Shown here: piece by piece, positions 9,849-47,539 of the stretch
How the letters are laid out: every line of letters starts with the position of its first letter
Numbering within the stretch: the stretch's first letter is position 1
Source of the DNA: an uncultured Acidimicrobiaceae bacterium
GTDB taxonomy: Bacteria; Actinomycetota; Acidimicrobiia; Spongiisociales; UBA5794
Length of the DNA stretch: 64,000 nt
Direction: 5' to 3'
NCBI GenBank assembly: GCA_964579415.1
Contig: CAZOGW010000002.1
Span: forward strand, 14,612-78,611
Notes under the pieces: generated by a model
What the model was told of the DNA's origin: nothing
The model's input: the letters and a program-made list of their open reading frames with translations, nothing else
Databases searched by the model: none
Position numbers and translations under genes: made by a program

Positions 9849-9972
9849 CCTCGGCCCCGAGCGGCCTCCTTGCCGAAACACCGGACAGCACGGATCCGTG
9901 TGCCGGATCAGGGTTGGGGTTGCTTTCCAGCACCGGTACGGTGTCCATACCGATCGGGAGGACGATCGAAGC

Positions 9973-13249: not shown

Positions 13250-13410
13250 TTTCCGAATCCCCGTCCGTTCCCGGTAGGCCCCACCGCCCGTCGATGGCCG
13301 CATCCTATCGACGGGCCGTTCCGCGGTCGAGGCTCACACGCGCCACCGGCGAACCCGCTCATCCTCCGGCGACCCCGCCCGCAGGCAGGTGCCGGCGCCG
13401 ACCATGGCGC

Positions 13411-23520: not shown

Positions 23521-23720
23521 GGCAATCCCCACTACCCGCCGGCCACCACGGCGCAGTCCTTGATGAAGCTGTCGGCTCGTCACCCAGGCGAGGCTAACCC
23601 AGGTGGCGATATAGGCGACTTCCTCGCGGGCAGGCCCGTGCCCGGAAGCGGTTACTCCACGATGCCCTCCCCTGCCACTACAATCCACCCGCCGCCGCCG
23701 GGCCATCCCCCGGGAGAACG

Positions 23721-27597: not shown

Positions 27598-29208
27598 TCA
27601 GGCGCCCTCGTCCCCGGCCACAAGAGACACTTCCTCCGCGGTGAGCGTCGAGCGCCACACATCCAGGGCACGGCCCATCCCCGCCCACATCGGATCGACC
27701 AGCGTGACGTCGCCGGATCCCCACTCCGGCAGTGGACCGTCGAGCACGTAACGTGACCGGAAGTCGTGCCCGTCGACGATGAACTCGTCGAACAACCTCA
27801 CGTTGTCTGCCCGGACCGCGCCCATCAAGGCGCGGCGGCCGTCCTCGGTGAGGAGCCGCGGTCGACCGGTACGGAGCGTGCCCTGTGACTTCTGCAGGTT
27901 GCGTCGTACCGCCTCCCGCTCCTCGACTTCGAGCAGCGGTGCCAGCACCAGGGCGACGAGCAGCTCGCGTTCGGAGAAGCTCACATTGTGGACCGGGGGT
28001 TTGTCGACCCTCAGTTCGACGCCGAGTCTGGAGGTCATGGCGTCGATGACCCCGGTGGGACCGCGGGCGGCGAGATGCTCGTAGGGGACGACGGTGAGGG
28101 AGCGGTCGAGGCGATCTCGGAGCAACTCGAGCACCGGCGTCCAGGTGAGCTGCGACGCGTCGACCCTGTCGAGGAAGGCATCGAAGGTCTTGGAGCCCCC
28201 CGCCTGCACCGACTGCACGTAGTAGGACTCGAGGAAGTCGGCCTGGTTGCGTACCGCGAACACAACGGACACGTCGGTGCCCGCCAGCGCCTCGGCGAGG
28301 ATGTCGACTCGCCGCGGTGCGTTCTGATAGAGAGGTCCGTCGAGCCGTGGCGAGGGGGCGCCGATGAGGGACTCGTCCGACACGAACACCGCGGCCGACT
28401 CCCGGACACTGCCCAGGTCGGCTGCCAGCGCCCGCGCCGCTTCCGCCCGGGCGCCCTCGTCTCCTTTCGAAGCCGTCCTCACCAGCTTGAGGGCTTCGGT
28501 GAGCGGGCCACTGCTGCGAATCTGGCACACCCACCCCTGCAGCGCCAGCTCGTCGCCGTGCCTGCGGAAGAACCGCTGTAGCGAGGTGGTGCCCGTCTTC
28601 GAGGCGCCCAGGTGAAGCACGACCCGGCGGCGATGATTCCCGTCACCTGCGTCGGATTCTCGACGGGTCCGGACCCAGACCGACGTCAGGGCGGCCCGGC
28701 TCTCCGCATCGACCCCGGAGCCGGGGTGGAAGTCCTGGCGGTGGTAGTCCCCGGCATCGAGCTGCCCGACGAGGGCCGTCACCGCGTCGGCCGGCGAACC
28801 GACGTGGTGCACCAGCACGACCTTCGGCTGGTGGCGGGCGACGGCGGCGGCAACCTGGGCGCCTCCATCCGGGTGGGAGACGGCGTCGAAGAACACCGCG
28901 TCGACACGCTCGGCAAGGTGGAACGGCTCGTGTTCCGCACCGACGACATGGAGGCGCCAGCGGTCCATCAGCTCGGGACTGCGGCGCATCGCGTCGAGGA
29001 CGACCAGGGCCCAGCCGGGATCGGATTCGACGGTATGGAGAACGGCTACCTTGTCACACCAGTACGGGGTCGCGGCACCGCCGCCCCATTCCAATCCGGT
29101 CATCCCGGGATCCAGCTGGGAAGCGGCGAACCCGGCCGCCCCCCCGGCGAGTTGCGGCGAGGCGTCACGGAACCGGCGCGCCTCGGCCGCCTCCAACGGT
29201 GACACCAT
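27598..29208 (-). CDS. PAPS-dependent sulfotransferase-domain protein with an N-terminal Rossmann-like extension
   Basis: 5'-PSB P-loop RRVVLHLGASKTGTTSLQRFF and 3'-PB motif VVFAVRNQADFLESYY. Start assigned to ATG 29208; in-frame GTG codons up to about 29340 are alternatives. The annotated 1041-aa ORF (to 30723) is rejected upstream of about 29340 as the shadow of the opposite-strand gene. Confidence 0.65.
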   Translation of the reverse strand: MVSPLEAAEARRFRDASPQLAGGAAGFAASQLDPGMTGLEWGGGAATPYWCDKVAVLHTVESDPGWALVVLDAMRRSPELMDRWRLHVVGAEHEPFHLAERVDAVFFDAVSHPDGGAQVAAAVARHQPKVVLVHHVGSPADAVTALVGQLDAGDYHRQDFHPGSGVDAESRAALTSVWVRTRRESDAGDGNHRRRVVLHLGASKTGTTSLQRFFRRHGDELALQGWVCQIRSSGPLTEALKLVRTASKGDEGARAEAARALAADLGSVRESAAVFVSDESLIGAPSPRLDGPLYQNAPRRVDILAEALAGTDVSVVFAVRNQADFLESYYVQSVQAGGSKTFDAFLDRVDASQLTWTPVLELLRDRLDRSLTVVPYEHLAARGPTGVIDAMTSRLGVELRVDKPPVHNVSFSERELLVALVLAPLLEVEEREAVRRNLQKSQGTLRTGRPRLLTEDGRRALMGAVRADNVRLFDEFIVDGHDFRSRYVLDGPLPEWGSGDVTLVDPMWAGMGRALDVWRSTLTAEEVSLVAGDEGA

Positions 29209-29466
29209 CGCCTGGCGAGCCGTGACCTCGGTCTCGAGCCGGTCGATGCGACCGAGGACGTCCGCGGTGGACTGCTTCACCACCGCGTCGCCCCTGAGAC
29301 GCTTCCATAGCTCGCTCACGTTACGCGCCTTCCCGTCACACACCGCGATCCGGTACCCGGCCGAAACCCGGCCATCGGTGTAAGACGGCACCTTAGGACG
29401 TACGCGGATCGCGGTGACCCTAAAATGCCGGTCGCTCTTCTTCCCCCACCAGCGAGGTGCCGGTTC

Positions 29467-32400
29467 ATGACCGTCGGGTTTGTCGTCTGGAACCCGTTCC
29501 AGGTGTTCCACATGGGACCCATCGCCGAACACCTCGACGACGTCGTGTTCCTGGTCGTCAACCGGTGGGGCCTGGAAGAGTTGCGCGCCGGTTTCGGGGG
29601 CAGCGTCGGCGCCTTCATCGACCGTCCCCACCAGATCGTCACCACGCGTCAGCTCACGGCGCTCGACGGGAAGCTGGACGCCCTGGTCTGCCCGAACCCG
29701 TTTCCCGGGATGAACGCCCTGGCGGCGACCCGCCGCGTCGGGATCCAGTACTCGATGACCAAGGAGAGCTACCAGTACGGCACCTGGCGGTCGCAGTTCG
29801 ACGTGAACCTGGCCTACGGCGACTACACCGTGGGCAAGCTGCTCCGCTACGGCCCCGCCGTCGCCGTGGGGAACCCCCGGTTCGCTCCCTGGTTCAAGGG
29901 CGCTGACGAGCCGGCGCCGCCTTCGCCGCGCAAGACGGTCATCTACCTCCCCACCTGGGGCGAGTTCTCGTCGGTGCCCCGGTTCCTCCCCGCCATCGAG
30001 GCGCTGCAGGCCGACTACGAGGTCATCGTCAAGCTCCACCACAAGATCCACCTCACCGAACCGGACAAGACGGCGCAGCTGCAGTCGTCGGGCATCAAGA
30101 GCTCCTTCCTCCCCCACGACGATCTGCTGCCGCAGCTGCGCCGCGCCGACCTCGTCATCAGCGACTACAGCGGAGCGATCTTCGACGCCATCTACGTGCG
30201 GAAGCCGGTGCTGCTTCTCCAGGAGGACCCGGCGAGCCTCATCGGTGACAAGTTCACCTTCGACAGCATCGAGTACTCCCGGCGCGACGACATCGGCCCC
30301 GTGGTGGCGTCTCCCGCGCAACTGGCCGACACCGTCGCCGCCGTCCTGAATGGCTCGATCGACTACCGGGACGCCAACGAACGGCTCCGGGCCGAATGCT
30401 TCGCCGAAGACGTGCACGCCGCCGAACGGTGCGCCGAGGTGATCGACACCGTGGCGCACCAGCGCACGAACCCCCTCTCCCCCCGGTCCCACAGCAACAG
30501 ACCTGTGGTGGCGCCGGAGCGACCAGTGGAGCAACGCATCCTCCGCCTCGAGCAACAGCGCGCCGCCGGCGCCGGAACCTCGACCCCGGCCGGGGATGCA
30601 CAGGAGCACCTGCGGGCCCGGATGCGCCAGTCGGTCAGGGCGGCAGCGGGCGCCGCCGGCGCCGGCACGTTGCTGCCCGCCCTGGCGGCGGCACCCGGCC
30701 CTCACGGGAAAACGACCCGCCACCTGGCGGTCCGCACCGCACTGCGCGTCTCCGCCGACCCGTCCGTGGCCATCCGATCACTGGAGGCGTTGCAGCGTCG
30801 GGACCGGCTCGATACCGGGCAGCGGCTGTGGCTCGCCGACCTACTGTTCGTCACCGGCCGCGGCGACGAGGCGGCGCGGCTGGTCGAGGGGACAACCGGC
30901 ACCTCCGCCCCCGATCTCCTCAAGACGCTGGCCCGGGCCTACGAAACCCTGTCCGGCCCGGCGGCGAGTTGGAACACCCTCACCGGGTTGGTCTCGCCGG
31001 CGCCGGTTCCCGCCTCCAACAACGGGCTGCTGGCATCGACTCCCCTCTCCGTGGACGACATCCTGCGACGGGTGACTACCAACGCGGCGTCGATCGCCAC
31101 CGACTGCACCGAGTTCGAAACGGCGGCCGAGCTGTACGCCGAGTTGCTCAAGCTGGACGACGACGTGGCCGACCTCCACCACGGGTACGGAAAGGCGCTG
31201 GGCGGCGCCTTCCGGCTCGACGAGGCACGGCAGGCCTACGCCGAGGCGTTGCGGCGTGGCCCCTTCGTGGACACCTACCAGCGTTCCTACGCTTCCTCGT
31301 GCTCCAAGGCGGAGGACTGGGAGGGTGCACACCACGCCTGGCTGCGACCGCGCCGCGATCAGGTGCTGGACGCCAGCGCCGCCCTCGGCGCCGTGCGCCG
31401 GGAACGCACCGCCTTCGACACCCTCGATGCCGCCTTCACCGACCCTGTCGTGGTCTCCTCGCCGGCGTTCCGTGATGCTCTGGAGGACAGCGCCGCAGTG
31501 GCGCCGCTGCGCCCCGCCGAACAGTGGATGGCGCTGCACTGGCGGCTGATCCGGCTCGGAGCCTTCTCCGCCGCCTACCGGGTCAAGGACCTGGCGGCGT
31601 GGAGTCTCCTCGGCGACCTGTCACGCAGCAACGGCAACGATCCCCGCAGCACGGTGCGCCTGTCGCGGGCGCTCGTCACCGTGGGAGAGCACGACGAGGC
31701 GCGCCGGCTGCTCTCGTTGTGGCTCGCCGCCTCCACCGATGAGCCGGAAGGGCGCGCCGCCGTCACCAAGGCGCTGGCGGACCTCGACCTCCTCCAGGGG
31801 GAGACGTCGTCGATCGTGCGCTGGTTCGCCGCAGCCGCGGTCGATCGCTTCCCCCAGGACGAGGGCCGCCGCATCGCCCGGGACGTCTTCGAGGGGCGCC
31901 GCGTCGCCATCGTGGGCCCGGGTCGGCCGCCCGAGGGAGCCTCCCCCGACCGATTCGACGCCTACGACGTGGTGGTCCGACCCAACCTGTTCCTCGACGC
32001 CGCAACCGCCGCCGCCACCGGCTCGGAGCGCACCGACGTCGCCTACTTCAACAGCGGCATCACCCGGCTCGGACTGGACGACCTGCTCGACGTCGCTGCC
32101 GGCCAGGGGGTACGTCAGGTGGTGCTGAGGCGACCCCGCGACCTGGGCCTGCTCGCTCCCCGCCTGCGCTCGGGCAAGGTCCGTTTCGTCGACATCGAGC
32201 CGTCGTGCCACCTGTTCGCCTCCTCCTTCGGCATCCAGCGGATGTTGTACGACATCAACCTCTACCGGCCCCGCACCATCGACGTGTTCAACGTCGATTT
32301 CTTCGCCGGGGCGGTCGAGTACGTCGACGGCTACAAGATCGACAACGCCGACATCAGCTTCCGCGGGTACACCCATGACTTCCGTGGCGACTTCATCCTC

Positions 32401-32514
32401 TCGCGGAACCTGCGCGCCAGCGGTGCCGTCGGGTTCGACCCGGTGGCCGACGCCATCCTCGACCTCGACGTCGCCGCCTACCTGGAACTCCTCGACGCCA
32501 AGCCGTCGGAGTGA
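29467..32514 (+). CDS. 1015-aa fusion: N-terminal TagF/TagB-like CDP-glycerol glycerophosphotransferase-family domain, a helical repeat (TPR-like) middle, and a C-terminal domain with a sialyltransferase motif-L-like signature
   Basis: RBS gaggtg upstream. TagF-family: RKTVIYLPTWGEFSS (compare YAPTWR) and ...ADLVISDYSGAIFDA. C-terminal domain: RRVAIVGPGRPPEGASPDRFDAYDVVVRPN, resembling sialylmotif L / Cst-type GNGPSL...DVxRxN. See findings. Confidence 0.65.
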   Translation: MTVGFVVWNPFQVFHMGPIAEHLDDVVFLVVNRWGLEELRAGFGGSVGAFIDRPHQIVTTRQLTALDGKLDALVCPNPFPGMNALAATRRVGIQYSMTKESYQYGTWRSQFDVNLAYGDYTVGKLLRYGPAVAVGNPRFAPWFKGADEPAPPSPRKTVIYLPTWGEFSSVPRFLPAIEALQADYEVIVKLHHKIHLTEPDKTAQLQSSGIKSSFLPHDDLLPQLRRADLVISDYSGAIFDAIYVRKPVLLLQEDPASLIGDKFTFDSIEYSRRDDIGPVVASPAQLADTVAAVLNGSIDYRDANERLRAECFAEDVHAAERCAEVIDTVAHQRTNPLSPRSHSNRPVVAPERPVEQRILRLEQQRAAGAGTSTPAGDAQEHLRARMRQSVRAAAGAAGAGTLLPALAAAPGPHGKTTRHLAVRTALRVSADPSVAIRSLEALQRRDRLDTGQRLWLADLLFVTGRGDEAARLVEGTTGTSAPDLLKTLARAYETLSGPAASWNTLTGLVSPAPVPASNNGLLASTPLSVDDILRRVTTNAASIATDCTEFETAAELYAELLKLDDDVADLHHGYGKALGGAFRLDEARQAYAEALRRGPFVDTYQRSYASSCSKAEDWEGAHHAWLRPRRDQVLDASAALGAVRRERTAFDTLDAAFTDPVVVSSPAFRDALEDSAAVAPLRPAEQWMALHWRLIRLGAFSAAYRVKDLAAWSLLGDLSRSNGNDPRSTVRLSRALVTVGEHDEARRLLSLWLAASTDEPEGRAAVTKALADLDLLQGETSSIVRWFAAAAVDRFPQDEGRRIARDVFEGRRVAIVGPGRPPEGASPDRFDAYDVVVRPNLFLDAATAAATGSERTDVAYFNSGITRLGLDDLLDVAAGQGVRQVVLRRPRDLGLLAPRLRSGKVRFVDIEPSCHLFASSFGIQRMLYDINLYRPRTIDVFNVDFFAGAVEYVDGYKIDNADISFRGYTHDFRGDFILSRNLRASGAVGFDPVADAILDLDVAAYLELLDAKPSE

Positions 32515-32519
32515 CCCAC

Positions 32520-33707
32520 ATGGCGGTGTTGTGCGTCATACCTGCCCGCGGCGGATCCAAAGGTATCCCCGGGAAGAACCTGCGCCGGGTCGGTGGGTTG
32601 ACGCTGGTGGAGCGAGCGGTCCGGTCGGCGCTGGCGGCCGAGCGGGTCGACAGGGTGGTGGTCAGCACCGACGACACCGAGATCGCCGCCGCGGCTCGGC
32701 GCAGCGGGGCCGGGGTGGTGCACCGACCTGCCGATCTGGCCGCGGATACCTCCACCAGCGAGTCCGCCCTGGTCCACGCCGTCGGATCGGTGCTCGGCGA
32801 GCCGGGTGACGGCGACGTGCTGGTCTTCTTGCAGTGCACCAGCCCCCTCATCGATCCGGCGGACATCGACCGGGCTGTCGCCATGGTCACCGAGGGGGGC
32901 TACGACTCCGTCTTCTCGGCGGTTCGGTCCCATGCCTTCGTGTGGCGAGAGGAGGATGGCGGCGCCGTCGGGGTGAACCACGACTGGCGGGTGCGCCTGC
33001 GCCGCCAGGATCTGCCTGCGGAGTACCGCGAGACCGGTGCGGTCTACGTGATGCGTATCGCCGGCTTCCTCGAGAGCGGGCACCGGTTCTTCGGGCGTGT
33101 CGGCATCTGCGTCGTGTCCGCCACCCACGGTATCGACATCGACGCCGCCGAGGACCTGGAGATGGCTCGCTTCGTAGCCCGGCGGGCGGACCCGGGCCCC
33201 CTCGCCGGCCTGGACCCGTCGCGGGTGACGGCGATGATCACCGACTTCGACGGGGTCCACACCGACGATCGCGCCTGGGTGGCCCAGGACGGGCAGGAGG
33301 CGGTCAGGGTGAGCCGGTCCGACGGTCTCGGGTTGGCTGCGCTGCGTGACTCCGGGCTGGCCCTGCTCATCCTCTCCAAGGAGCGGAACCCGGTGGTGCG
33401 GGCGCGGGCCGGCAAGCTCGGGATCGAATGTTTGCAGGGGATCGACGATAAACTGGCGGCTCTCCGCCGGTGGGCCGAGGGCAGGGGTATCGACCCGGCA
33501 GGGATCGTGTTCGTCGGCAACGACAGCAACGACGTGCCGTGCCTCGAGTTCGTCGGATGGCCGGTGGTGGTCGCGGATGCCCACCACTCGGCCCACGCCA
33601 CCGGGGCGATGACGACGCGGCGGCGCGGCGGCGCCGGCGCGCTGCGGGAGATCGCAGACCGGCTGCTGGCCGGCCCGGGCCCCTACGGATGGCAGATCGA
33701 ACAGTGA
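32520..33707 (+). CDS. neuA: Acylneuraminate (nonulosonate) cytidylyltransferase fused to a C-terminal HAD-IIIA (KdsC-type) sugar-phosphate phosphatase
   Basis: N-terminal CMP-sugar synthetase motifs (VIPARGGSKGIPGKN...FLQCTSPL). C-terminal HAD motifs (DFDGVHTDD..., VGNDSNDVPCL). GTG 32511 is an alternative start overlapping the upstream stop. Confidence 0.8.
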   Translation: MAVLCVIPARGGSKGIPGKNLRRVGGLTLVERAVRSALAAERVDRVVVSTDDTEIAAAARRSGAGVVHRPADLAADTSTSESALVHAVGSVLGEPGDGDVLVFLQCTSPLIDPADIDRAVAMVTEGGYDSVFSAVRSHAFVWREEDGGAVGVNHDWRVRLRRQDLPAEYRETGAVYVMRIAGFLESGHRFFGRVGICVVSATHGIDIDAAEDLEMARFVARRADPGPLAGLDPSRVTAMITDFDGVHTDDRAWVAQDGQEAVRVSRSDGLGLAALRDSGLALLILSKERNPVVRARAGKLGIECLQGIDDKLAALRRWAEGRGIDPAGIVFVGNDSNDVPCLEFVGWPVVVADAHHSAHATGAMTTRRRGGAGALREIADRLLAGPGPYGWQIEQ

Positions 33708-33709
33708 GG

Positions 33710-34582
33710 ATGCAGATGAGCGTGATCGATGTCGGAGGACGCCCGGTCGGCGACGGTGAGCCTGTCTACGTCATCGCCGAGATCGGGATCAACCACAACG
33801 GCGACGTCGAGATCGCCAAGCAACTCATCGACGTCGCGGTGGAGGCCGGGTGCGACGCGGTGAAGTTCCAGAAGCGCACCCCCGAGATCTGCGTGCCGCT
33901 CGACCAGCGGGACAAGATGCGGGAGACGCCCTGGGGCGATATGACGTACCTGGCCTACAAGGAGCGCACCGAGTTCTGGGAGTCGGAGTACCGGCAGATC
34001 GACGAGCACGCCGCCGGCCTCGGTATCCAGTGGTTCGCCTCGCCGTGGGACGTGCCCTCGGTCGACTTCCTCGAAGGGTTCGGCGTACCCACCCACAAGG
34101 TGGCGTCGGCCAGCCTCACCGACGAGGCGCTACTCAAGGCGCTGGCGGCGACCGGCAAACCTCTCATCGTCTCCACCGGCATGTCGACGATCGACGAGAT
34201 CGACCGCGCCATGGAGTTGCTGGCGGGGTCGGATGTGGTCCTTCTCCACTCGACGTCGACGTACCCGTGCCCCCCCGAGGAATCCAACCTGAGGACCATC
34301 ACCACCCTCCGGGAGCGTTACCGCGTCCCGGTCGGCTACTCGGGCCACGAACGCGGGTTGCAGGTCACCCTGGGAGCGGTGGCGCTGGGAGCCGTCGCCG
34401 TCGAGCGCCACATCACCCTCGACCGGACCATGTGGGGATCGGACCATGCGGCCAGCGTCGAACCGCAGGGTTTGCGCCATCTGGTCCGCGACATCCGCAT
34501 CATCGAGACGGCGTTGGGTGACGGGGTCAAGCGGGTCTTCCCCGGCGAGGAGGAGCCGCGGCGGCGCCTCCGCTCGGCGTGA
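33710..34582 (+). CDS. neuB: NeuB-family nonulosonic acid synthase (TIM-barrel only, short form lacking the C-terminal SAF domain)
   Basis: VYVIAEIGINHNGD...AKxAG.DAVKFQKRT...LxSTGMSTIDEIDRAM...HSTSTYPCP. Start ATG 33710 is preceded by the gagga RBS, and its TGA overlaps the neuA stop. Confidence 0.85.
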   Translation: MQMSVIDVGGRPVGDGEPVYVIAEIGINHNGDVEIAKQLIDVAVEAGCDAVKFQKRTPEICVPLDQRDKMRETPWGDMTYLAYKERTEFWESEYRQIDEHAAGLGIQWFASPWDVPSVDFLEGFGVPTHKVASASLTDEALLKALAATGKPLIVSTGMSTIDEIDRAMELLAGSDVVLLHSTSTYPCPPEESNLRTITTLRERYRVPVGYSGHERGLQVTLGAVALGAVAVERHITLDRTMWGSDHAASVEPQGLRHLVRDIRIIETALGDGVKRVFPGEEEPRRRLRSA

Positions 34583-34592
34583 CGGTCGGCGC

Positions 34593-35327
34593 TCAGGAGA
34601 CCCGACGGAACATGAAGCTGGCGTAGTTGACGTCGGGGCGGATGTTGCGCACCTGCAACGGCTCGAACCCGGCCTCCCCGAGAAGCTGCCAGAACTCGTC
34701 GATGGCGTACGACGTGGCCGTGATGTAGTGAGATGCGTAGTCCCCGCTCTTGGGCAGGAACCGGGGATTGCCGTTGTCGTACCTGATCTGGATCAGGCCG
34801 AGCCCACCCGGCTTGGCGGCGCCGGAGAGGGCGTGCAGCACGGCCACGCCGTATTCCTTGCTGGGGAAGTGCTGGAAGACGGCGGTGCTCAACACGATGT
34901 CGAAGCTCTCCCGGTAGGGGGCCATGGCGTCGGCGGGAGCGCCGGTGAGGTGCACCCCGGTGAAGTCCCCGAAGCCGGCCTGCTCCGCCTGGGTGCGGCA
35001 CTCGTCGAGGTTCGGTCCCGAGATGTCGACGCCGACGTAGCGACGGGAGACGGGTGCCAGCGCCACCACGTTGCTACCCCCGCCGGGGCCCCACTCCAGG
35101 ACGGCCAGTCCCGCACCGGGAGCCAGGGGCGGTTGGGCGAGGCTGCGGCGGAACACGTCGAGTTCCCGCCTGACCCGGGTCCCGATGGCCAGCCAGGCGC
35201 GGTCGTCGGCGTAGCGCCCGAAGCCGCGCCAGTGGGAATGCTCCCGCTTCTTGTCGTCATGGGAGCTGCAGGCCCACACGTCGGCGGCGAGGCGCTGTTG
35301 TGCGATGAGGTCCGATTCCGATGTCAT
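34593..35327 (-). CDS. Class I SAM-dependent methyltransferase
   Basis: Motif I LAVLEWGPGGGSN and the later GGLGLIQI. About 244 aa; sits at the end of a minus-strand operon. Confidence 0.7.
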   Translation of the reverse strand: MTSESDLIAQQRLAADVWACSSHDDKKREHSHWRGFGRYADDRAWLAIGTRVRRELDVFRRSLAQPPLAPGAGLAVLEWGPGGGSNVVALAPVSRRYVGVDISGPNLDECRTQAEQAGFGDFTGVHLTGAPADAMAPYRESFDIVLSTAVFQHFPSKEYGVAVLHALSGAAKPGGLGLIQIRYDNGNPRFLPKSGDYASHYITATSYAIDEFWQLLGEAGFEPLQVRNIRPDVNYASFMFRRVS

Positions 35328-35346: not shown

Positions 35347-36210
35347 TCAGGTCGGGGGTACCGCCGACGAGAACCTGTTGGCGACCAGGGCCGCCATCTG
35401 CTCGTCGGGGAGATACCGCCGCGCCGCCTGGTGCCACAGCCCCTCCACCTTGGTGAGACGCCTGTCGTTGGCGGTGCGGGGGCGGGTCCACGGCTTCGAT
35501 CCGACGTAGTGGAGGAACCGGACGTCCCATCGCTCGATCTCCCCCTCCACCGATTCGAGCCTGTCGGGGAACATGCGCTTGGTGCTGTTGTAGCGGATCG
35601 GCAGCCAACGCACCCGGTAGGGGTAGAAGTAGAGGTTGAGTACCGCCTGGTCGGCCTTGCCGGTGTGGGGCCGGGCGTCGGCGAGCCGGGTCCGCGCCGT
35701 CAGGTCGTGGTAGGTGGCGCCGCCGAGGTAGCGCCGGCCCACCCGGAAGACGCCGGAGTTGAAGAACGGGAGCGGCTGCTGACCGCGGCGGGAAGCGGCC
35801 CGCACCGCGGCGAAACCGTCGTGGCCATCCGCCGGGTGCAGCAGCTCGGAGATGTCGCCCAGACACAACATGTCGGCGTCGAGGCACAACACCCGGTCGA
35901 ACTCGGTGAACCGGAACGCCTCAAGAATGAGGAACGCCGCCACCAGGTGTTGTGGCGTATCGAGGGCGGCGCGGCCCTGGGCCTGGAGGTGGGCCAGCGA
36001 CGGCGGCGATCCCTCGACGATGCGGAGTGACGGGTACCGGCGTCGCAGCAGGTCGGCGTTGGCCGCGGAGAGCCCGTTGTCGGGCGTGAGAACCAGCCAG
36101 GGTTCCTCGAGCCACGGGTTGTGCTCCAGCACCGTGGAGAGGAAGACGACGAAAGCGGGAACGAAATCGTCGGTGACCACGGTGACGATCGCCGCGCCCG
36201 GCGCCGTCAT
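35347..36210 (-). CDS. GT8-family (LgtC/glycogenin-like) retaining glycosyltransferase
   Basis: VTVVTDDFVPAFVVF... DxD context VLCLDADMLCLGDISELL; FNSGVFR; and the HYVGSKPW tail. Start at MTAPGAAIV with a 4-nt overlap with the upstream gene. Confidence 0.75.
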   Translation of the reverse strand: MTAPGAAIVTVVTDDFVPAFVVFLSTVLEHNPWLEEPWLVLTPDNGLSAANADLLRRRYPSLRIVEGSPPSLAHLQAQGRAALDTPQHLVAAFLILEAFRFTEFDRVLCLDADMLCLGDISELLHPADGHDGFAAVRAASRRGQQPLPFFNSGVFRVGRRYLGGATYHDLTARTRLADARPHTGKADQAVLNLYFYPYRVRWLPIRYNSTKRMFPDRLESVEGEIERWDVRFLHYVGSKPWTRPRTANDRRLTKVEGLWHQAARRYLPDEQMAALVANRFSSAVPPT

Positions 36211-36971
36211 GCGACCAGCTCTTCGAACACGGCCCGCTCGAACACCCCAGGGCCGCCTCCGGCAGTGGCGTCGAGCAGCCGGATCCCCTCGGTCTCCATC
36301 TCGGACTTCACCACCCGGTAGCTCTGCAGCAGCGGCGCATCGTCGCCGGCGCCATCGCACCCGAGGAGCACGATCTCACCGAAGCCCATCAGGCGGGCCA
36401 GCACCAGGGCGAAGGTCGTCACGGTGTCGTGGGCGTCATCGAGCGGCTGTGCCGGGTCGAGGTTCATCGTCCCCCGCTCCTCGACCCGGAGTCTGGGATC
36501 GTCGAAGAGAAGGAAACGCACCTCGGAGAGGGGGAAGAGACTCTCGGCGTGCAGCAGCGAACGGAACCGGAAGGGAAAGAACTTGGTCACGCCGCCGGTC
36601 CGCTCCCCCAACAGCGTCGCCAGCTCGGCATCGAGTCGGGGTTCGGGGTTCCCCCAGCCCCCGAACAGCTCGTGGCCGGCGCCGCAGTAATAGGTGGGCT
36701 TCCATCGATCGAGTGCCGGGTGGCGGACCACCCAATCGGTGCCGAAGGCGGGCGTGTCCCCGATGAGCGACAGGTCCTGGGTCAGCAGCGACGGCCCGCC
36801 GGCGATGACGAAACACCGCTCACCGGCATGGCTGTTGCGGAGCTGCTCGATGCGGTCCAGCTCACCGCTCTCCCCGTAGGCGCGGCTGAGCCGGCGGCGC
36901 TGCAGCATCTGGCGATCCGACAGGCCCTGGAGGGAGTCTGCGAGCGCGGGCATGCCGGAGGGTGAGGTCAC
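36207..36971 (-). CDS. DUF115 / MptE-like (Maf, motility-accessory-factor-like) protein; candidate nonulosonic-acid transferase
   Basis: CFVIAGGPSL motif (compare Cst-II VIIAGNGPSL) followed by LLGCDGAGDD. Translationally coupled to the GT8 gene. Confidence 0.55.
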   Translation of the reverse strand: MTSPSGMPALADSLQGLSDRQMLQRRRLSRAYGESGELDRIEQLRNSHAGERCFVIAGGPSLLTQDLSLIGDTPAFGTDWVVRHPALDRWKPTYYCGAGHELFGGWGNPEPRLDAELATLLGERTGGVTKFFPFRFRSLLHAESLFPLSEVRFLLFDDPRLRVEERGTMNLDPAQPLDDAHDTVTTFALVLARLMGFGEIVLLGCDGAGDDAPLLQSYRVVKSEMETEGIRLLDATAGGGPGVFERAVFEELVA

Positions 36972-37663: not shown

Positions 37664-38599
37664 ATGATGCGGTGCCCGGTATGTGGCCGGTTGACCCGCT
37701 CGCGGAGCTATCCCTTCCTCAACGTGGGCCGGCACCGGCATCCGACCTTCGACGGCCGGCACCTGTCGGCCTGCTCCCGGTGCGACTCGATGTGGTGCAC
37801 CGACGCGCCCACCAACGGCGAGCTGGGCGACTACTACGCCACCAGCTACGTCCCGGCGAGAATGGGCGAGGCCGACAAGGACACCTGGCCCATCTGGGAT
37901 ACCCGGGCGTACTCGCAGATCATGCTGGCTCGCCTCTTCGTCGACTGGGCACCGGGAGACCTGTTCGTCGACGTGGGCCCGGGCAACGGTGCCGCCCTCT
38001 CCGTGGCGCCGCTGCTGCTGCGGGACGCCCACCTCGGATGTGTCGAGTTCAATCCCCACGCCATCGAGTTCTTCCGCCGCCACGTTCCCGACATCACGGT
38101 CACCGAGTCGATCGAGGAGTTCGCCCCGGGTTCGGCCAAGATGGTCTACAGCGCCCACAGCCTCGAGCACTACCGCCCCGGCGACGCCTTCGACGGTCTG
38201 CGCGGCATCGCCCGGGCCCTGGCGCCGGGCGGTGTCCTGGCGCTGGAGGTGCCGTGGGCCCCATCGGCCCGTACCATCGCCGCCGGACGCCACACCCCCC
38301 ATCTGTTGTTCTTCTCGCCCCAGGGCCTGCAGCGCCTGCTCACACGTGCCGGTTTCGAGGTGGTGTTGTGGTTCACCTCGCGGGGACGGCGCGGCAACCG
38401 TGACGCGGTGGCGGACCACCCGGTTCCCCCGGACCTCGGTCGTGGCCTCGCCGCCCGCCTCTCCACCTTTGTCACCGGCGACCTGATGGCCTCGGTCCCC
38501 CGCGACGGCCAGCCCATCAAAGGTGTCATCAAGGTCGTGGCCGTCAACGGCGGGCGCCGCCTGATCGGCGGTCAGGCAGATGCCAGCAGGATGCGGTAG
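37664..38599 (+). CDS. Class I SAM-dependent methyltransferase with an N-terminal Cys4 zinc-ribbon
   Basis: CPVCG...CSRCDSMWC zinc ribbon; motif I LFVDVGPGNGAAL; post-II GGVLALEVP. Its 3' end overlaps the convergent ADH gene by 28 nt. Confidence 0.7.
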   Translation: MMRCPVCGRLTRSRSYPFLNVGRHRHPTFDGRHLSACSRCDSMWCTDAPTNGELGDYYATSYVPARMGEADKDTWPIWDTRAYSQIMLARLFVDWAPGDLFVDVGPGNGAALSVAPLLLRDAHLGCVEFNPHAIEFFRRHVPDITVTESIEEFAPGSAKMVYSAHSLEHYRPGDAFDGLRGIARALAPGGVLALEVPWAPSARTIAAGRHTPHLLFFSPQGLQRLLTRAGFEVVLWFTSRGRRGNRDAVADHPVPPDLGRGLAARLSTFVTGDLMASVPRDGQPIKGVIKVVAVNGGRRLIGGQADASRMR

Positions 38600-39726
38600 A
38601 GGGCATCGTCCCCGTAGCGGACAGGGTTGTTGCCGAGGCGCTCGACGTTGACCGACTCCGCCAGCCTGCGCAGGCCGGGCTCGTCGCCGATACCCACCTC
38701 TCCCAGCGACGCCGGAAGGTCGATCTCCCGCAGCAGGGCGTTGAATCGTTCCCGGGCGGTGCCTTCCGCAGCGGCTCCAAGCCGGGACCTGATCTCCTCC
38801 ATCACGGAGAGGTGGGTGGCCCGATCGACGGTGGCCTGGAGATCGGCGGGGTCGGCAGCGGAGTGGGCGTCGATGAAGGCGCCCAGCGTCAGTGCCACCG
38901 CGCTGCCATGGTTGACGCCGTAGCCCTTGGTGATGGCGTACGACAGGGCGTGGGCCGCCGTGGTCCTCGACACGTCGATGGCCTTGCCGGCGAGGTGGCT
39001 GCCGATGCTCATGGCGCGCGCCGAGTCGATGTCGGGTCGGTTAACAAAGGTCTCGATGGCGGGGAGGAGCAGGTCGAGGGCACGCCGGGCGCGGCGGCGG
39101 CTCCACGGCGAAGCGGCCGCCGCCCACAGGCTCTCGACCGCCTGGCACACTGCGTCGATGCCGGAGGTGGCCCGCTGGTGCGCCGAGCCGCTCATGGCGA
39201 GCCGGGGGTCGAGGACGATGTGGTCGGCGTACATCCCCGGCCCGGCGATGGAGAACTTCTCCTCACCGGAGTAGACGACGGCGAAGTGGGTGGCCTCGCT
39301 CCCCGAGCCGCTCGTGGTCGGCACCAGCACCAGCGAGCGGTCGCGGGAGGCGATCGTGCCACCTTCCCGGATGGTCGCTTCGAGCCGGTGCGTCGCCGTG
39401 GATCCGTAACCACACAGCAGCTTGGCCATGTCCATGGCGCTGCCTCCGCCGACACCCAGCACCAGGTCCGGCTCCCACTCGGCGGCCAGGGCCAGCCCCA
39501 CTGCCAGGTCGGCGGCGTCGGTGTTGGGGGCGAAGTCGCTCCAGCGGTGCACCTCGGCGACCGCCTCCAGCCCGGGCAACATGGCGGCGGCGCCGCTGGC
39601 CTCGAACGAGCGTCGCCCGCACACCAGCATGATCCGCCGTGCCTGCAGCGCCCGGGCGATCCCGGGAACATCGCCGGCGGCGCCGTCGCCGTAACTGGTT
39701 GGCACCTTGCGGGCCGGTTCCTTCAC
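38572..39726 (-). CDS. Iron-containing (group III) alcohol dehydrogenase; predicted phosphonoacetaldehyde reductase (PhpC/FomC-like)
   Basis: Fe-ADH family motifs (GGGSAMDMAK, GxxHxxxH-type metal region AHALSYAITKGYGVNHG). Translationally coupled (ATGA-type overlap) to the phosphonopyruvate decarboxylase gene. Confidence 0.7.
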   Translation of the reverse strand: MKEPARKVPTSYGDGAAGDVPGIARALQARRIMLVCGRRSFEASGAAAMLPGLEAVAEVHRWSDFAPNTDAADLAVGLALAAEWEPDLVLGVGGGSAMDMAKLLCGYGSTATHRLEATIREGGTIASRDRSLVLVPTTSGSGSEATHFAVVYSGEEKFSIAGPGMYADHIVLDPRLAMSGSAHQRATSGIDAVCQAVESLWAAAASPWSRRRARRALDLLLPAIETFVNRPDIDSARAMSIGSHLAGKAIDVSRTTAAHALSYAITKGYGVNHGSAVALTLGAFIDAHSAADPADLQATVDRATHLSVMEEIRSRLGAAAEGTARERFNALLREIDLPASLGEVGIGDEPGLRRLAESVNVERLGNNPVRYGDDALYRILLASA

Positions 39727-40859
39727 GGCGCCGGCTCGGCGAGCGCCTTCATGAAGGCTGCCTTGGAGTCGGCGGGTGAGCGGGTGGGGCGGCCCAGGTC
39801 GGAACGATGCCCGGGGCGGACCACCAGTTCCAGGAGGCTCGGCCCGCCACCGCGGCGCATCTCCGCCACGTTGCGTTCCAGGTCCGTCACCCCGGTCAGC
39901 GACCGCGCCCAGCGGTACCCGGCGGCGATGCCGAGCGCGGGCACGTCCACGACGTCGATCGACGTCGGCTGGCCGCCGACGCTGTCATGGACCCCGTTGT
40001 TGAACACGACGTGGAAGTAGTTGGCCGGGGCGTGATCTGCGATGACGGCGAGGCTGCCCATGTGCATGAGCAGCGCACCATCGCCGTCGAGGCACCACAC
40101 CTCGCGGTCCGGTTCGTCGAGGGCGACGCCGAGGGCGATCGAGGAGGCGTGGCCCATGCCGCCGACGGTGAGGAAGTCGAGAGCGCGGTCCTCCCCGGCG
40201 CCGCTGCGCAGCTCGAACAGCTCCCGGCTCAGCATCCCGGTGGTGGACACGATGACGGCATCGTCGCCCAACAACCCGACCAGAGCGCCCAGCGCCTCCT
40301 CCCGGGTGGGTACCGCGGCGTCGGGCGACGGGTCGACGGGCACGACCGGTGCGAAGGTCCCCTTCTCCACCAGGAGGACGAAGGGCCCGCTGCGCTCCTC
40401 GGCGAGCCGGACCGCTTCGGCCACGACCTGGGCCGCATCCTCCGGCTCCCGGGGCAGCACCGACCACGGCAGGTCCATGCCGTCCAGCATCGACGTCATG
40501 ACCCGTCCCTGCTTGACGTGCTGCGGCTCGTCCTTGACGCCGGGCTGGCCCCGCCAGCCGATCACCAGGAGCATGGGGACGCCGTAGACGTCGGGGTCGG
40601 CCAGCGACAGCAGCGGGTTCACCGTGTTCCCGGTCCCCGAGTTCTGCAGGTAGACGGCGGCAGGGCGGCCGGTGCGCAGGTAGTGGCCGATGGCGATGCC
40701 GACCGAGCCGCCCTCGTTGGCGGCGATGACGTGTCGCGAGCGGGGTAGCTCCGCCATGACGTGCCGCCCCAGTTCCTTGAGCAGGCTGTCGGGCACCCCG
40801 GTGAAGAACGTGATCCCCTGCGCTTCGAGCCAGGCGACGAAGTCCTCCGCTCGGATCAT
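39723..40859 (-). CDS. ppd: Phosphonopyruvate decarboxylase (TPP-dependent)
   Basis: 378 aa with a TPP pyrimidine-binding N-domain and a C-domain carrying the GDG(X)n NN-like motif ([17 protein letters not shown]...FNNG). Start [12 protein letters not shown] at 40859 overlaps the ppm stop by 4 nt. The annotated upstream extension to 41825 is a shadow frame. Confidence 0.8.
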
Positions 40860-42166
40860 GTGGCGTTCTCCGGGACGATGGTGAGCACCTCGGAGATGGG
40901 GGCGATCATCTGGTCGGCTTCGAGGGAGCGGCCGTGGGTGAGAACGCTCTCGGCGACGCGTCGCATCTGCGGGTAGGCGGCACGGAGCATGTGGTTGGCG
41001 TAGATCACGATGCGCACGCCGGCATCGGCCAGCTCGGCCTCGGTGACCTGGTTGTACGACGTGGGCACGGCGACGATGGGGACCTGCTTGGCGAACTTGG
41101 CGGCATGGGCGCAGAACTCGAACACCTCTTCGGGATCCCTGCGCCGGCTGTGGATCATGATCCCGTCGGCGCCGGCATCGACGTAGGCTTCGGCCCGCTC
41201 GACGGCGTCGTCGACTCCCTTGTCGAGGATCAGGCTCTCGATACGGGCGATCACCATGAAGTCGGAGGTGATCTGCGACTGCTTGCCGATGGCGATGCGG
41301 CCGCAGAAGTCCTCGATGGAGGACTGGGTCTGGGTGACGTCGGTACCGAAGAGCGAGTTGCGCTTGAGGCCTTCCTTGTCCTCGATGATCACCGCCGACA
41401 CTCCGAGGCGCTCCAGGGAGCGCACCGTGAAGGCGAAGTGCTCCGGCTTGCCGCCGGTGTCGCCGTCGAAGATGAGGGGCTTGGTGGTGACCTCGAACAA
41501 TTCGTTCACCATCTGCAGCCGGGAGCTGATGTCCACCGCCTCGATGTCGGGTTTGCCCCGGGAGGTGGAATCGGTCAGCGAGCTGGACCACATCCCGTCG
41601 AATTCGACGGTCCTCCCGTCGCGCTCCACCTGGGCGTTCTCGACGATGAGCCCGGACAGCCCGCTGTGGGCCTCCATGATGCGCACCACCGGCTTGTTGG
41701 CCAGCAGGCGCCCCAGGCGCGCCAGGCGGACGTTGGGTGTGGTCCCCACCTGTTTGATGGCGGCGTTGAGCTGGGTCGAGGAGATGCCCTCCGTGTAGGG
41801 GACCTCCACCAACTCCCCTCCCCACTCCGCCAGGGCGTCGATGACCCGCTGGCGGGTGTCCCGCTGCACGCCGCTGCGCCAGTCGTCTCCGTGCACCACG
41901 AAGTCGGGGCGGAGGCGCTGCAGGTTGGGGACGTAGTCCAGAGTCTCCTGGGCCACCACCACGGTCACGCCCTTGAGGTTCTCCACCACCGCCCGGCGCT
42001 GCTCGTAGGTCATGTGCGGCAGCCGCTTGTAGCCGGAGATGGCCCGGTCGGTGAGCAGGCCGACGGTGACGTCGCCGATCTCGGCGGCGCGTCGGAGGAT
42101 GTTGATGTGGCCGGGGTGGATGAGGTCGGCGCTCATGCCCACGTACACGCTGGGGCGGGTTGACAT
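40856..42166 (-). CDS. ppm: Bifunctional phosphonate cytidylyltransferase (PntC-like HxGH nucleotidyltransferase) fused to phosphoenolpyruvate phosphomutase (Ppm)
   Basis: N-terminal approximately 140 aa: [15 protein letters not shown] (HxGH) plus an RISSTQ-like region [10 protein letters not shown], i.e. the GlpT/TagD-type cytidylyltransferase fold. C-terminal PEP mutase: [16 protein letters not shown]...VIIEDK...IARIES. Start at ATG 42166 ([10 protein letters not shown]); the 746-aa annotated ORF upstream of this is a shadow frame. Confidence 0.85.
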
Positions 42167-46785: not shown

Positions 46786-47539
46786 ACGCTGCGAGCACCT
46801 CGTCCACCGTCCCGTCGAGATGGATCTTCCCCTGCTCGAGCCACATGGCGCGGCTGCACGTGGCCCGAATCTCGTTCATGTTGTGCGTCACCATGACGAT
46901 GGAGCCGGCGTTGGCCTGCAGGTCCCGGATCCGAGCCATGCTCTTGCGTTTGAAGGTACGGTCACCCACCGCCAGCGCCTCGTCGATGAACAGCAGCTCG
47001 GGTTGCTGCAGCGTGGCGATGGCGAACGCCAGCCGCGCCCTCATCCCCGACGAGTAGGTGCGCAGCGGCCGCCTCAGGGCCTCGCCCAGCTCGGTGAAAT
47101 CGGCGACTTCCTCGATGCTCTCGCGGATCTCGCTCATCGGCATTCCCATGGCGAGGCAGCCGATTGTGATGTTGCGGTAGCCGGACAGCTCCGGCTTGAG
47201 GGCTGCCCGCACCGTGAGCAGCACCGGCTCGGAGCGGACCAGGACCGACCCCGATGTCGGTTGCAACAGGCCGGCGAGGGCACGCAGCAGCGTGCTCTTG
47301 CCCGACCCGTTGGAGCCGACGATGCCGACCACCTCGCCGACGTCGATCTGGAACGTCACTCCCTTGACCGCGTGCACCTCGTCGGAGACGCGGCTGCGGA
47401 AGCCCCCGCTCATCATCCGGCGCAGGGTGAACGATTGCTCCTCGTAGACCTTGAACCGCACGTGGATGTCGTCCGCCACGATGGCCGGTGTCCCGGTGGC
47501 GATGCTCCGCTCGGTGACGACGGCGCGCTCAACTGCCAT
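46769..47539 (-). CDS. ABC transporter ATP-binding protein of the polysaccharide/teichoic-acid exporter type (TagH/KpsT/Wzt-like, no C-terminal carbohydrate-binding extension)
   Basis: Walker A GIVGSNGSGKST, signature YSSGMRARLAFA, Walker B LLFIDEA, and the H-loop. Overlaps the permease gene by 11 nt. Confidence 0.85.
   Translation of the reverse strand: MAVERAVVTERSIATGTPAIVADDIHVRFKVYEEQSFTLRRMMSGGFRSRVSDEVHAVKGVTFQIDVGEVVGIVGSNGSGKSTLLRALAGLLQPTSGSVLVRSEPVLLTVRAALKPELSGYRNITIGCLAMGMPMSEIRESIEEVADFTELGEALRRPLRTYSSGMRARLAFAIATLQQPELLFIDEALAVGDRTFKRKSMARIRDLQANAGSIVMVTHNMNEIRATCSRAMWLEQGKIHLDGTVDEVLAAYDSQE

Follow-up and report, generated by a model that had tools for sequence, protein, structure and literature searches.

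A TagF-like/GT29-like fusion protein in an actinobacterial nonulosonate operon, near a phosphonate cassette, as a candidate two-headed glycopolymer enzyme

A 64,000-nucleotide stretch of DNA from an uncultured Acidimicrobiaceae bacterium (GenBank assembly GCA_964579415.1, contig CAZOGW010000002.1, positions 14,612 to 78,611; hereafter the window) raises the question of which nonulosonic acid a short gene set makes, and which enzyme installs it on what. The set encodes a 1015-aa protein composed of a TagF-like domain, a tetratricopeptide repeat (TPR) region and a sialyltransferase-like domain; a 395-aa fusion of a NeuA-type CMP-nonulosonate synthetase to a haloacid dehalogenase (HAD) phosphatase, hereafter NeuA-HAD; and a 290-aa NeuB-family nonulosonate synthase. 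Our preferred reading, to which we assign a probability of about 0.6, is that this operon makes a CMP-activated nonulosonate, likeliest Kdn (3-deoxy-D-glycero-D-galacto-non-2-ulosonic acid), and installs it on an envelope glycopolymer through a two-headed, capsule-polymerase-like enzyme that also uses a CMP-activated phosphonate.

Because the window is ~70% G+C, raw lists of its open reading frames (ORFs) are crowded with spurious frames; genes were called by third-position GC (GC3) frame analysis together with translation. Both backed three consecutive plus-strand genes (Table 1), and since the gaps between them measure only 5 and 2 nt, one operon is suggested and the genes are probably co-transcribed. 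The start of the first gene is backed by a homologue, P0002, that opens with identical residues. Pfam scans covered all GC3-supported ORFs above ~60–100 aa in the window. The ~48 kb around the operon hold four GT2 and one GT4 glycosyltransferases, a TPR-LicD protein, two Stealth proteins, an ATP-binding cassette (ABC) transporter, a Bac_transf initiating transferase, RmlACD and several O-methyltransferases, a gene content that clearly points to a cell-envelope glycopolymer locus.

The C-terminal part of the large protein (residues ~790–1015) has no Pfam match. Word-indexed searches returned 10 proteins for the whole protein, 3 for the C-terminal domain and 20 for the family alignment, with a single full-length homologue (P0002, 47% identity) and three fragments; an exhaustive hidden Markov model (HMM) search was needed to reveal the family, because words from the TPR and low-complexity regions had probably saturated the candidate list. 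By the exhaustive search, residues ~792–1015 belong to a real family, with 86 domain copies in ~75 of 150 listed proteins. Its common layout is a run of TPR repeats followed by the domain; some members carry two or three copies, and some, at 244 aa, are barely more than the domain and may be fragments. Near-invariant motifs of the family are VAIVGP, D..DVV.R, RTD..YY, QR..YD...P..I.VFN.DFF, GY and HD...DF, and the window protein carries VAIVGP (813), DVVVRPN (834), QRMLYD (924), DFF (944) and HDFRGD (970). The first two of these lie within residues 810–840 and bear out the segment that an earlier, sequence-only reading of the operon had likened to sialylmotif L.

Several lines of evidence relate this family to the GT29 sialyltransferases: firstly, five of 53 members reach the Glyco_transf_29 profile (PF00777) at E≤1e-3 (best 4.2e-9), with P0039, P0047 and P0050 at 14–20 bits, under the cut-off of 23, and P0164 and P0169 above it at 32–35 bits, P0169 over nearly the entire profile; secondly, the family profile run against all PDB sequences retrieved essentially GT29 enzymes only (ST6Gal1 2.3e-6, ST3Gal1 2.4e-5, ST8Sia3 1.1e-4, ST6GalNAc2 0.21), with one weak unrelated match at 0.0035, and its alignment coincides with sialylmotif L of ST6Gal1, ST3Gal1 and ST8Sia3; thirdly, hhalign related the family to P0169 with 97.8% probability (E 9e-13, 170 columns), pairing the family's GY and H-x4-D with PYAPGY and H-x4-E of P0169. 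The equivalent of motif S (QR..YD...P..I.VFN.DFF) is placed by position only, and the conserved cysteine pair of GT29 sialyltransferases is absent from the family.

An AlphaFold2 model of the domain built from 31 sequences reached a predicted local distance difference test (pLDDT) score of 87.3 and a predicted template modelling score (pTM) of 0.88. Foldseek gave a probability of 1.0 for ST8SiaIII, ST6GalNAc2, Cst-I and Cst-II, and the model superposes best on ST3Gal1, ST6GalNAc2, ST8Sia3 and Cst-I. By this model the C-terminal domain is of the GT-A variant 2 (GT29/GT42) fold with a CMP-sugar site, and the sialyltransferase likeness of the sequence-only reading holds at the level of structure, Cst-II included. 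Whereas Cst-I and Cst-II of Campylobacter belong to GT42 and the Maf enzymes to DUF115, the sequence profiles of the window domain point to GT29 and not to GT42 or PF01973. It differs from the eukaryotic GT29 enzymes (ST3Gal, ST6Gal, ST6GalNAc, ST8Sia) in being too divergent for PF00777, in being appended to TPRs and a TagF-like domain, and in its probable donor, CMP-Kdn or another bacterial nonulosonate and not CMP-Neu5Ac (CMP-N-acetylneuraminic acid). To our knowledge, GT29 sialyltransferases are regarded as a eukaryotic family. A bioinformatic survey has listed 23 bacterial GT29 sequences without function (Petit et al. 2018, PMC5811610).

The gene neighbourhoods of this GT29-like family bear on its donor. 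Genes of the NeuB family and of CTP_transf_3 both lie within 10 kb of the domain in seven of nine loci. In the window NeuA-HAD and NeuB follow directly; in L001 (57% G+C) the order is NeuA-HAD, NeuB and then the large fused protein; in L088 (61% G+C) it is TagF-like+TPR, TPR+GT29-like, NeuA-HAD and NeuB; and in L025, from Ilumatobacter, the GT29-like gene is convergent on NeuA-HAD/NeuB, in a locus that also holds an ABC transporter, a Stealth protein and a homologue of a window methyltransferase. The P0161 locus has PseB/PseC-like genes, NeuB and CTP_transf_3, and L092 has PseB/PseC-like genes, CTP_transf_3 and a NeuB with a SAF domain; in L090, whose protein bears three copies of the domain, CTP_transf_3 lies directly downstream and NeuB 5.7 kb upstream. 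The remaining two are L087, with CTP_transf_3 directly downstream and no NeuB seen on its 4-kb contig, and L089, a copy of the P0161 locus that is cut short before the nonulosonate genes. L087 is the one, short locus yielded by a metagenome scan with profile A9; the scan with profile A8 confirmed no locus. Since nonulosonate genes stand near the domain across loci, which span different nonulosonate types, guilt by association strongly supports a CMP-nonulosonate transferase function, and fold and gene association together make the window domain a candidate for that activity.

Which nonulosonate would be transferred depends on the two downstream genes. NeuB matches PF03102 over residues 39–274 (5.5e-81, 272 bits); Pfam finds no SAF/AFP-like domain and the protein stops at residue 290, so that the description of it as a TIM barrel only was correct. 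In NCBIfam it scores 271 bits against TIGR03569 (Neu5Ac synthase; cut-off 399.65) and 220 against PseI (cut-off 340); lacking SAF and scoring under both cut-offs, it is a family member but neither a NeuB nor a PseI equivalog. Its top PDB match, 6NCS, is also a 290-aa chain. In the 395-aa protein, CTP_transf_3 (2.1e-25) is joined to a HAD domain with a Hydrolase_3 match at residues 309–366 and the motifs DFDGV (242) and GNDSND (333), in agreement with the proposed synthetase-phosphatase fusion. The HAD part scores 93.5 bits for KdsC (cut-off 208) and 78.7 bits for Kdn-9-P phosphatase (NF058599, cut-off 180), and in the PDB 69 bits for the Kdn-9-P phosphatase BT1713 and ~70 bits for KdsC; it thus appears to belong to the KdsC/Kdn-9-P phosphatase family, under both equivalog cut-offs.

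The Pfam scans of the window found no Epimerase_2 (NeuC), DegT aminotransferase, PseB-type dehydratase or GNAT, as the sequence-only reading had noted; the sole match to an epimerase/dehydratase family is RmlD, within a dTDP-rhamnose set. These absences and the HAD family are consistent with the 9-phosphate, Kdn-type route that it had proposed; as to the sugar itself, we infer Kdn as the most probable product and regard the window NeuB as probably a Kdn-9-P synthase. Bacteroides thetaiotaomicron and Prymnesium parvum have an established route from mannose-6-phosphate (Man-6-P) and phosphoenolpyruvate (PEP) through Kdn-9-P and Kdn to CMP-Kdn (PMC6200933), and the window resembles these systems in its HAD phosphatase, which would imply a 9-phosphate route, and in having no NeuC. 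Actinomycete walls contain Kdn teichulosonic acids (PMC3479208, PMC13011467, PMC11481543). In Streptomyces coelicolor, SCO4880 (NeuA) and SCO4881 (NeuB) lie in the PhoP-activated cluster SCO4873-4882 (PMC3479208), which is genetically tied to a teichulosonic acid that contains Kdn (PMC3479208; PMC13011467, citing Ostash 2014; PMC11481543). The window pair adjoins in the same way, matched to SCO4880/SCO4881 by annotation only, whereas the transferase candidates of S. coelicolor (the NeuE-like SCO4879 and the glycosyltransferase SCO4878) differ from those of the window.

A sugar other than Kdn would fit some of these data: another nonulosonate of the 9-phosphate route, such as Neu5Ac made from N-acetylmannosamine 6-phosphate (ManNAc-6-P) through a NanE/NanK-type pathway or a NeuC elsewhere, or an eight-carbon acid like Kdo (3-deoxy-D-manno-octulosonic acid). 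The even scores of the HAD domain for KdsC and Kdn-9-P phosphatase leave room for it, as do a NeuB under every equivalog cut-off and the putative ManNAc-6-P epimerase, SCO4873, of the S. coelicolor cluster (PMC3479208). We nevertheless hold it to be unlikely, if a serious contender: the 64 kb yielded no gene for forming or N-acetylating an amino sugar, Kdn is a constituent of the teichulosonic acids characterised from Actinomycetota (PMC11481543, PMC13011467), in which the module is standard, and membership in the NeuB family speaks against Kdo-8-P synthase chemistry.

How ordinary this part of the operon is became clear from a survey of NeuA-HAD with one genome per species and locus details from the best 80 loci. 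At least 542 genomes, mostly actinobacterial, encode the full-length fusion; every one of the best 80 belongs to Actinomycetota, with hosts that include Agromyces, Demequina, Actinomadura, Nonomuraea, Brevibacterium, Paeniglutamicibacter, Microbispora and Streptosporangium, and the highest identity to the window's copy is 59%. Each of the 80 loci holds a NeuB 59–83% identical to the window's, mostly directly adjoining. All 81 NeuB copies (80 loci plus L001) end 1–16 residues past the barrel, hence without a SAF domain. NeuA-HAD with a SAF-less NeuB and no NeuC, which had been called unusual, is therefore the normal actinobacterial arrangement, already known and common, and no discovery in itself. 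By contrast, the GT29-like domain occurs in one of the 80 sampled loci (L025) and the TagF-like fusion in none. NeuA-HAD and NeuB share a single stop-free frame in 33 of the 81 loci (e.g. L017, L032 and L044), many from Streptosporangiales-type genomes, which suggests a triple NeuA-HAD-NeuB fusion protein.

We turn to the other end of the large protein. The N-terminal domain matches Glyphos_transf (PF04464) over residues 155–326 at 29.3 bits (cut-off 22.1) and is thus a member of that family; a profile of its 335 residues found Cps3D (1.1e-8), TagF (2.9e-8) and TarL (1.7e-6) in the PDB, in line with the TagF-like assignment made earlier. Conserved motifs are PTW (162), HH (191-192) and SDYSG (232), and the invariant HH aligns inside the 'MHY' region of TagF, its catalytic-histidine region. 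In TagF the catalytic histidines are H444 of the N-subdomain and H584 of the C-subdomain (PMC5974469); most TagF-like relatives have Gln where the window protein has H15. The TPR region that follows has matches between residues 450 and 770 (TPR_19 1.9e-11, weaker TPR_16, TPR_14, TPR_4 and TPR_12).

The closest relatives of the TagF-like domain, P0003-P0008 (38–44% identity), are ~950-aa fusions to a Capsule_synth (KpsC/KpsS-type) domain. KpsC and KpsS are CMP-Kdo-dependent Kdo transferases. Three distinct relatives, P0004, P0006 and P0007 (38–44% identity), which span five contigs (L002/L003, L004 and L085/L086), directly follow an operon of a cytidylyltransferase-PEP phosphomutase fusion (CyTase-PepM), a phosphonopyruvate decarboxylase (Ppd) and an iron-dependent alcohol dehydrogenase (Fe-ADH). 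All of these are Gram-negative capsule-type loci, L002 and L004 with KpsC/S-like, ABC-transporter and Poly_export genes. The loci L002, L004 and L085 have no nonulosonate genes and no cytidylyltransferase beyond the PepM-fused one. The idea that the TagF-like domain itself transfers the nonulosonate was rejected, as its closest relatives sit in loci without nonulosonate genes. The pepM locus of L085 (8994-10154, minus strand) and L086 (8425-9585, minus strand) also encodes, beside a Stealth gene, a second, stand-alone TagF-like paralogue of 386 aa that shares 32% identity with the N-terminal domain of the window protein.

The window has the same cassette, as three minus-strand genes with 4-nt overlaps, 4 kb from the NeuA/NeuB operon (Table 1). 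Its PepM carries the diagnostic EDKxxxxxNS motif and an HxGH motif (as HPGH), its Ppd scores 436 bits for TIGR03297 (cut-off 312.5), and its Fe-ADH has the phosphonate-associated TIGR03405 as best NCBIfam match, under cut-off, and shares 48–58% identity with the dehydrogenases that the L002, L004 and L085 pepM operons encode. On these marks the trio is, by sequence, a Fom1-type pathway to CMP-2-hydroxyethylphosphonate (CMP-HEP), with a PF01467 CyTase-PepM fusion, Ppd and Fe-ADH in one operon as in Fom1/Fom2/FomC-type pathways. Fom1-type cytidylyltransferase domains make CMP-HEP (PMC6697681). The window CyTase-PepM is 71–78% identical to the copies of L002, L004 and L085 (39–60% G+C) and its Ppd 59–61%, identities which suggest that the HEP cassette spread horizontally together with the TagF-like domain.

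No TagD/TarI-type gene for CDP-polyol synthesis was found by the Pfam scans of the window, nor any CDP-glycerol or CDP-ribitol synthesis gene in L002, L004 or L085. From this, from the synteny and from the Fom1 cytidylyltransferase chemistry, CMP-HEP follows as the most economical donor for the TagF-like clade; for the TagF-like head of the window it is the best candidate, on grounds of synteny. The link to phosphonate chemistry drawn by the sequence-only reading thus gains a basis in conserved gene order. Our full-text literature search found no paper combining pepM or phosphonate with TagF, and no HEP transferase described in the literature searched.

The same nonulosonate pathway and GT29-like transferase might instead be paired with a TagF-like head that uses CDP-glycerol or CDP-ribitol from genes outside the window, yielding a poly(nonulosonate-polyol-phosphate) of teichoic-acid-like kind, and the phosphonate would then go to another enzyme, for example the TPR-LicD protein (Table 1). 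Membership in PF04464 and the best PDB matches, which are glycerol- and ribitol-phosphate polymerases, agree with such a donor. LicD-type enzymes are proposed phosphocholine transferases. They are also proposed phosphonate transferases in 2-aminoethylphosphonate systems (PMC6697681), the 704-aa TPR protein of the window has a LicD-family match (24.7 bits) that makes it an alternative taker of CMP-HEP, and the short contig L001 shows no pepM. We judge this unlikely all the same. The only cytidylyltransferase of L002, L004 and L085 is fused to PepM, with the TagF-like gene directly after the dehydrogenase; a CDP-polyol synthesis gene is wanting there as in the window; the clade, aligned by itself, seems to have no invariant histidine of the TagF H444 type; and a phosphonate-type dehydrogenase stands beside the module in L088.

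L088 also shows the module as a unit. It keeps the gene order of the window with the large protein split into two adjacent genes, a 551-aa TagF-like+TPR protein 50% identical to window residues 1–329 and a 640-aa TPR+GT29-like protein 36% identical to residues 561–1015, TPRs being present in both halves; its contig stops within a homologue of the window Fe-ADH (53% identity) that is convergent on NeuB. The fused form is found in the window and in L001, where the gene order differs. The four functions thus travel together, fused or split, and stand beside a phosphonate cassette in at least two organisms. There is a parallel in the Gram-negative relatives: they pair the TagF-like domain with a Kdo-transferase-type domain, organisms of the window type with a sialyltransferase-type domain, and both partner domains are predicted to use a CMP-activated ulosonic acid.

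In the two-headed enzyme that we favour, the SAF-less NeuB would condense PEP with a hexose 6-phosphate, mannose-6-phosphate, to what is probably Kdn-9-P, a 9-phosphononulosonate; the HAD part of NeuA-HAD would strip the 9-phosphate, and the NeuA domain would convert the freed sugar to its CMP form. The GT29/GT42-fold head would then transfer the nonulosonate, with the near-invariant His of H-x4-D as likely catalytic base (His970 of HDFRGD in the window, by analogy with the VS-motif histidine), and the TagF-like head would transfer the phosphonyl group of CMP-HEP, supplied by the PepM/Ppd/Fe-ADH operon, with release of CMP. The TPR region may oligomerise the enzyme or handle the chain, as in Cps1B and Cps3D (PMC5974469, PMC11666461). 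The predicted product is a Kdn-containing wall or capsule polymer with phosphonate esters, possibly in alternating units, and the enzyme could be either a processive polymerase that builds an alternating backbone or a bifunctional one that decorates or primes.

A number of points weigh against this reading. The window's own C-terminal domain has no PF00777 match even at E≤1, so that the profile check proposed by the sequence-only reading succeeds for some relatives and fails for the domain itself, whose link to GT29 is transitive. The sugar is not fixed by the HAD domain, which scores KdsC and Kdn-9-P phosphatase alike. In an alignment of the clade only, the TagF-like domains have no invariant His in the N-terminal subdomain, where TagF has H444, and L001 shows no pepM cassette on a contig too short to show one. 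The window offers other transferase candidates, TPR-LicD for the phosphonate and a GT8 and DUF115-like pair for the nonulosonate (Table 1). Finally, we know of no biochemically characterised member of either the GT29-like family or the TagF-like clade.

The 254-aa DUF115-like protein and its GT8 partner deserve weighing on their own account. The protein carries AGGPSL and matches MptE-like/DUF115 weakly (PF01973, 24.5 bits, under the 34.6 cut-off), and its gene overlaps that of the downstream GT8 by 4 nt. The only homologue found is a GT8-DUF115 fusion with GNGPSL in Demequina gelatinilytica (L016, 2405-4510, minus strand), 7.5 kb from NeuA-HAD/NeuB. The protein had no match in a PDB sequence search, hhalign found no relation to the GT29-like profile, and a single-sequence model reached a pLDDT of 40 and was unusable. 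It is possibly a second, Maf/Cst-type nonulosonate transferase, a gene that the window has separately from the GT29-like one, and the pair may serve hexose/nonulosonate transfer. The pair could even be the real nonulosonate/hexose polymerase of a teichulosonic acid, in which case the GT29-like domain would use another CMP donor or be a non-catalytic binding module. Besides the motif, the weak match and the Demequina fusion, it is relevant here that the Streptomyces teichulosonic acid alternates Gal and Kdn (PMC11481543). This explanation seems to us quite improbable: the GT29-like family retains its near-invariant His/Asp and motif-L residues and tracks nonulosonate genes in loci without any DUF115-like homologue, its gene is directly operonic with NeuA and NeuB in the window, the DUF115 assignment suffers from a sub-threshold match and a poor model, and both enzymes may simply act. 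Neither this explanation nor a CDP-polyol donor conflicts with the GT29-like assignment.

With our reading of a two-headed enzyme using CMP-nonulosonate and CMP-HEP, the nearest known systems are the TagF-like/TPR/glycosyltransferase capsule polymerases Cps3D, Cps7D, Cps1B and CslB (Litschko et al. 2018, PMC5974469), for one of which, Cps3D, a structure is known (8QOY; PMC11666461). They share with the window the joining of TagF-like domain, large TPR region and glycosyltransferase domain in a single polypeptide, as well as ABC-transporter export genes in their loci, and Cps3D is the top PDB match of the N-terminal domain; this layout, too, had been taken for unusual, but it has precedents in these Gram-negative polymerases (PMC5974469). 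The differences lie in the partner domain, GT29/GT42 fold in the window versus K4CP-type GT-A or TarM-type GT-B in theirs; in the donors, likely CMP-nonulosonate and CMP-phosphonate versus UDP-hexose and CDP-glycerol; in the host, which resembles a high-GC actinomycete whereas theirs are Gram-negative pathogens; and in the apparent lack of an invariant H444-type His. Yu et al. reportedly described 2-HEP phosphonoglycans of Glycomyces and Stackebrandtia in 2014 (cited in PMC8942020). The window locus abounds in O-methyltransferase and glycosyltransferase genes, as a phosphonoglycan locus would be expected to, and differs in offering a syntenic TagF-like candidate fused to a candidate nonulosonate transferase.

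The boldest form of our reading is that the 1015-aa protein, and the split form of L088, is a self-sufficient polymerase that alternates Kdn and HEP transfers to give poly(Kdn-hydroxyethylphosphonate), a teichoic-acid-like polymer. The GT29-type head would put Kdn on the free 2-hydroxyl of HEP and the TagF-type head would put the phosphonyl group from CMP-HEP on Kdn, so that phosphonate esters with C-P bonds would hold part of the backbone together; a counterpart with Kdo would be the product of the Gram-negative TagF-like/KpsC-like fusions. We regard this version as speculative and rather unlikely; if true, it would provide the first bacterial GT29-type enzyme with an assigned function and the phosphonate transferase still missing from phosphonoglycan biosynthesis.

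Three features seem new as far as we can tell: the TPR-linked GT29-like clade and its steady association with nonulosonate genes (the sequences of Petit et al. being compared by description only), the fusion or adjacency of the GT29-like domain to a TagF-like domain, and the tight synteny of the TagF-like clade with CMP-HEP operons. The first gives an assayable hypothesis on bacterial GT29-type function and has a bearing on the proposal that animal sialyltransferases are of bacterial descent. The TagF-like clade, found after CMP-HEP operons in Gram-negative capsule loci and in the Gram-positive-type locus of the window, is a specific candidate for the HEP transferase and, in the window, a candidate CMP-HEP (or CDP-polyol) phosphotransferase. 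The fusion predicts a surface polymer that joins two unusual acids, and it offers a compact enzyme for chemo-enzymatic synthesis.

Table 1. Features of the window (positions of the 64,000-nt stretch) and the basis of their assignment
Feature	Coordinates	Strand	Basis
RTX calcium-binding-repeat protein	9898..11154	+	
704-aa TPR protein with LicD-family match	11189..13303	-	LicD family
RTX calcium-binding-repeat protein	21124..23706	-	
582-aa sulfotransferase-like gene	27598..29346	-	
1015-aa protein, whole gene	29467..32514	+	GC3, translation
TagF-like domain (CDP-glycerol glycerophosphotransferase family, GT-B), residues 1-335	29467..30471	+	PF04464
Linker and TPR region, residues ~336-791	30472..31839	+	TPR matches
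GT29/GT42-like (sialyltransferase-fold) domain, residues 792-1015	31840..32514	+	profiles, model, motifs
NeuA-type CMP-nonulosonate synthetase (~1-220) and C0-type HAD phosphatase (~235-388), 395 aa	32520..33707	+	CTP_transf_3, Hydrolase_3; GC3, translation
NeuB-family nonulosonate synthase, TIM barrel only, 290 aa	33710..34582	+	PF03102; GC3, translation
SAM-dependent methyltransferase, convergent on NeuB	34593..35327	-	Methyltransf_11 5.9e-12
GT8-family glycosyltransferase, partner of the DUF115-like protein upstream	35347..36210	-	PF01501 5e-11
254-aa protein, AGGPSL motif, weak MptE-like/DUF115	36207..36971	-	PF01973, under cut-off
Phosphonate trio, whole	38572..42166	-	
Fe-ADH, candidate phosphonoacetaldehyde reductase giving 2-hydroxyethylphosphonate	38572..39726	-	Fe-ADH 4.3e-30
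Phosphonopyruvate decarboxylase (Ppd)	39723..40859	-	TIGR03297
Fom1-like PF01467 cytidylyltransferase-PEP phosphomutase fusion	40856..42166	-	PEP_mutase 3.1e-59, CTP_transf_like 4.3e-12
Stealth-family protein, first	42196..44964	-	
Stealth-family protein, second	45076..46785	-	
ABC transporter ATPase	46769..47539		
RTX calcium-binding-repeat protein	48634..49929	+	
649-aa CmcI/rhamnosyl O-methyltransferase and TylF macrocin O-methyltransferase fusion	55242..57191	+	

The remaining genes of the locus fill in the picture of an envelope glycopolymer. The methyltransferase convergent on NeuB is the one with a homologue, 44–45% identical, in the Ilumatobacter locus L025. Beyond the phosphonate cassette, two adjoining Stealth-family (hexose-1-phosphate transferase) proteins are followed by the ABC transporter ATPase; the first has an N-terminal extension of ~600 residues without Pfam match, and in L085 and L025, too, Stealth genes stand with TagF-like or GT29-like genes. 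The sulfotransferase-like gene lies upstream of the large gene, in divergent orientation. The TagF-like/Capsule_synth relative P0008 (1259 aa) also bears sulfotransferase domains; a link between the two was dropped, as they have no detectable sequence similarity.

The 649-aa methyltransferase fusion stands beside RmlA/C/D, and its predicted domains point to O-methylated deoxyhexoses in the polymer. Three proteins with RTX calcium-binding repeats are scattered through the locus, one with Peptidase_M15_4 and FG-GAP and another with a polysaccharide deacetylase domain, a set that is odd for a high-GC, actinomycete-like genome.

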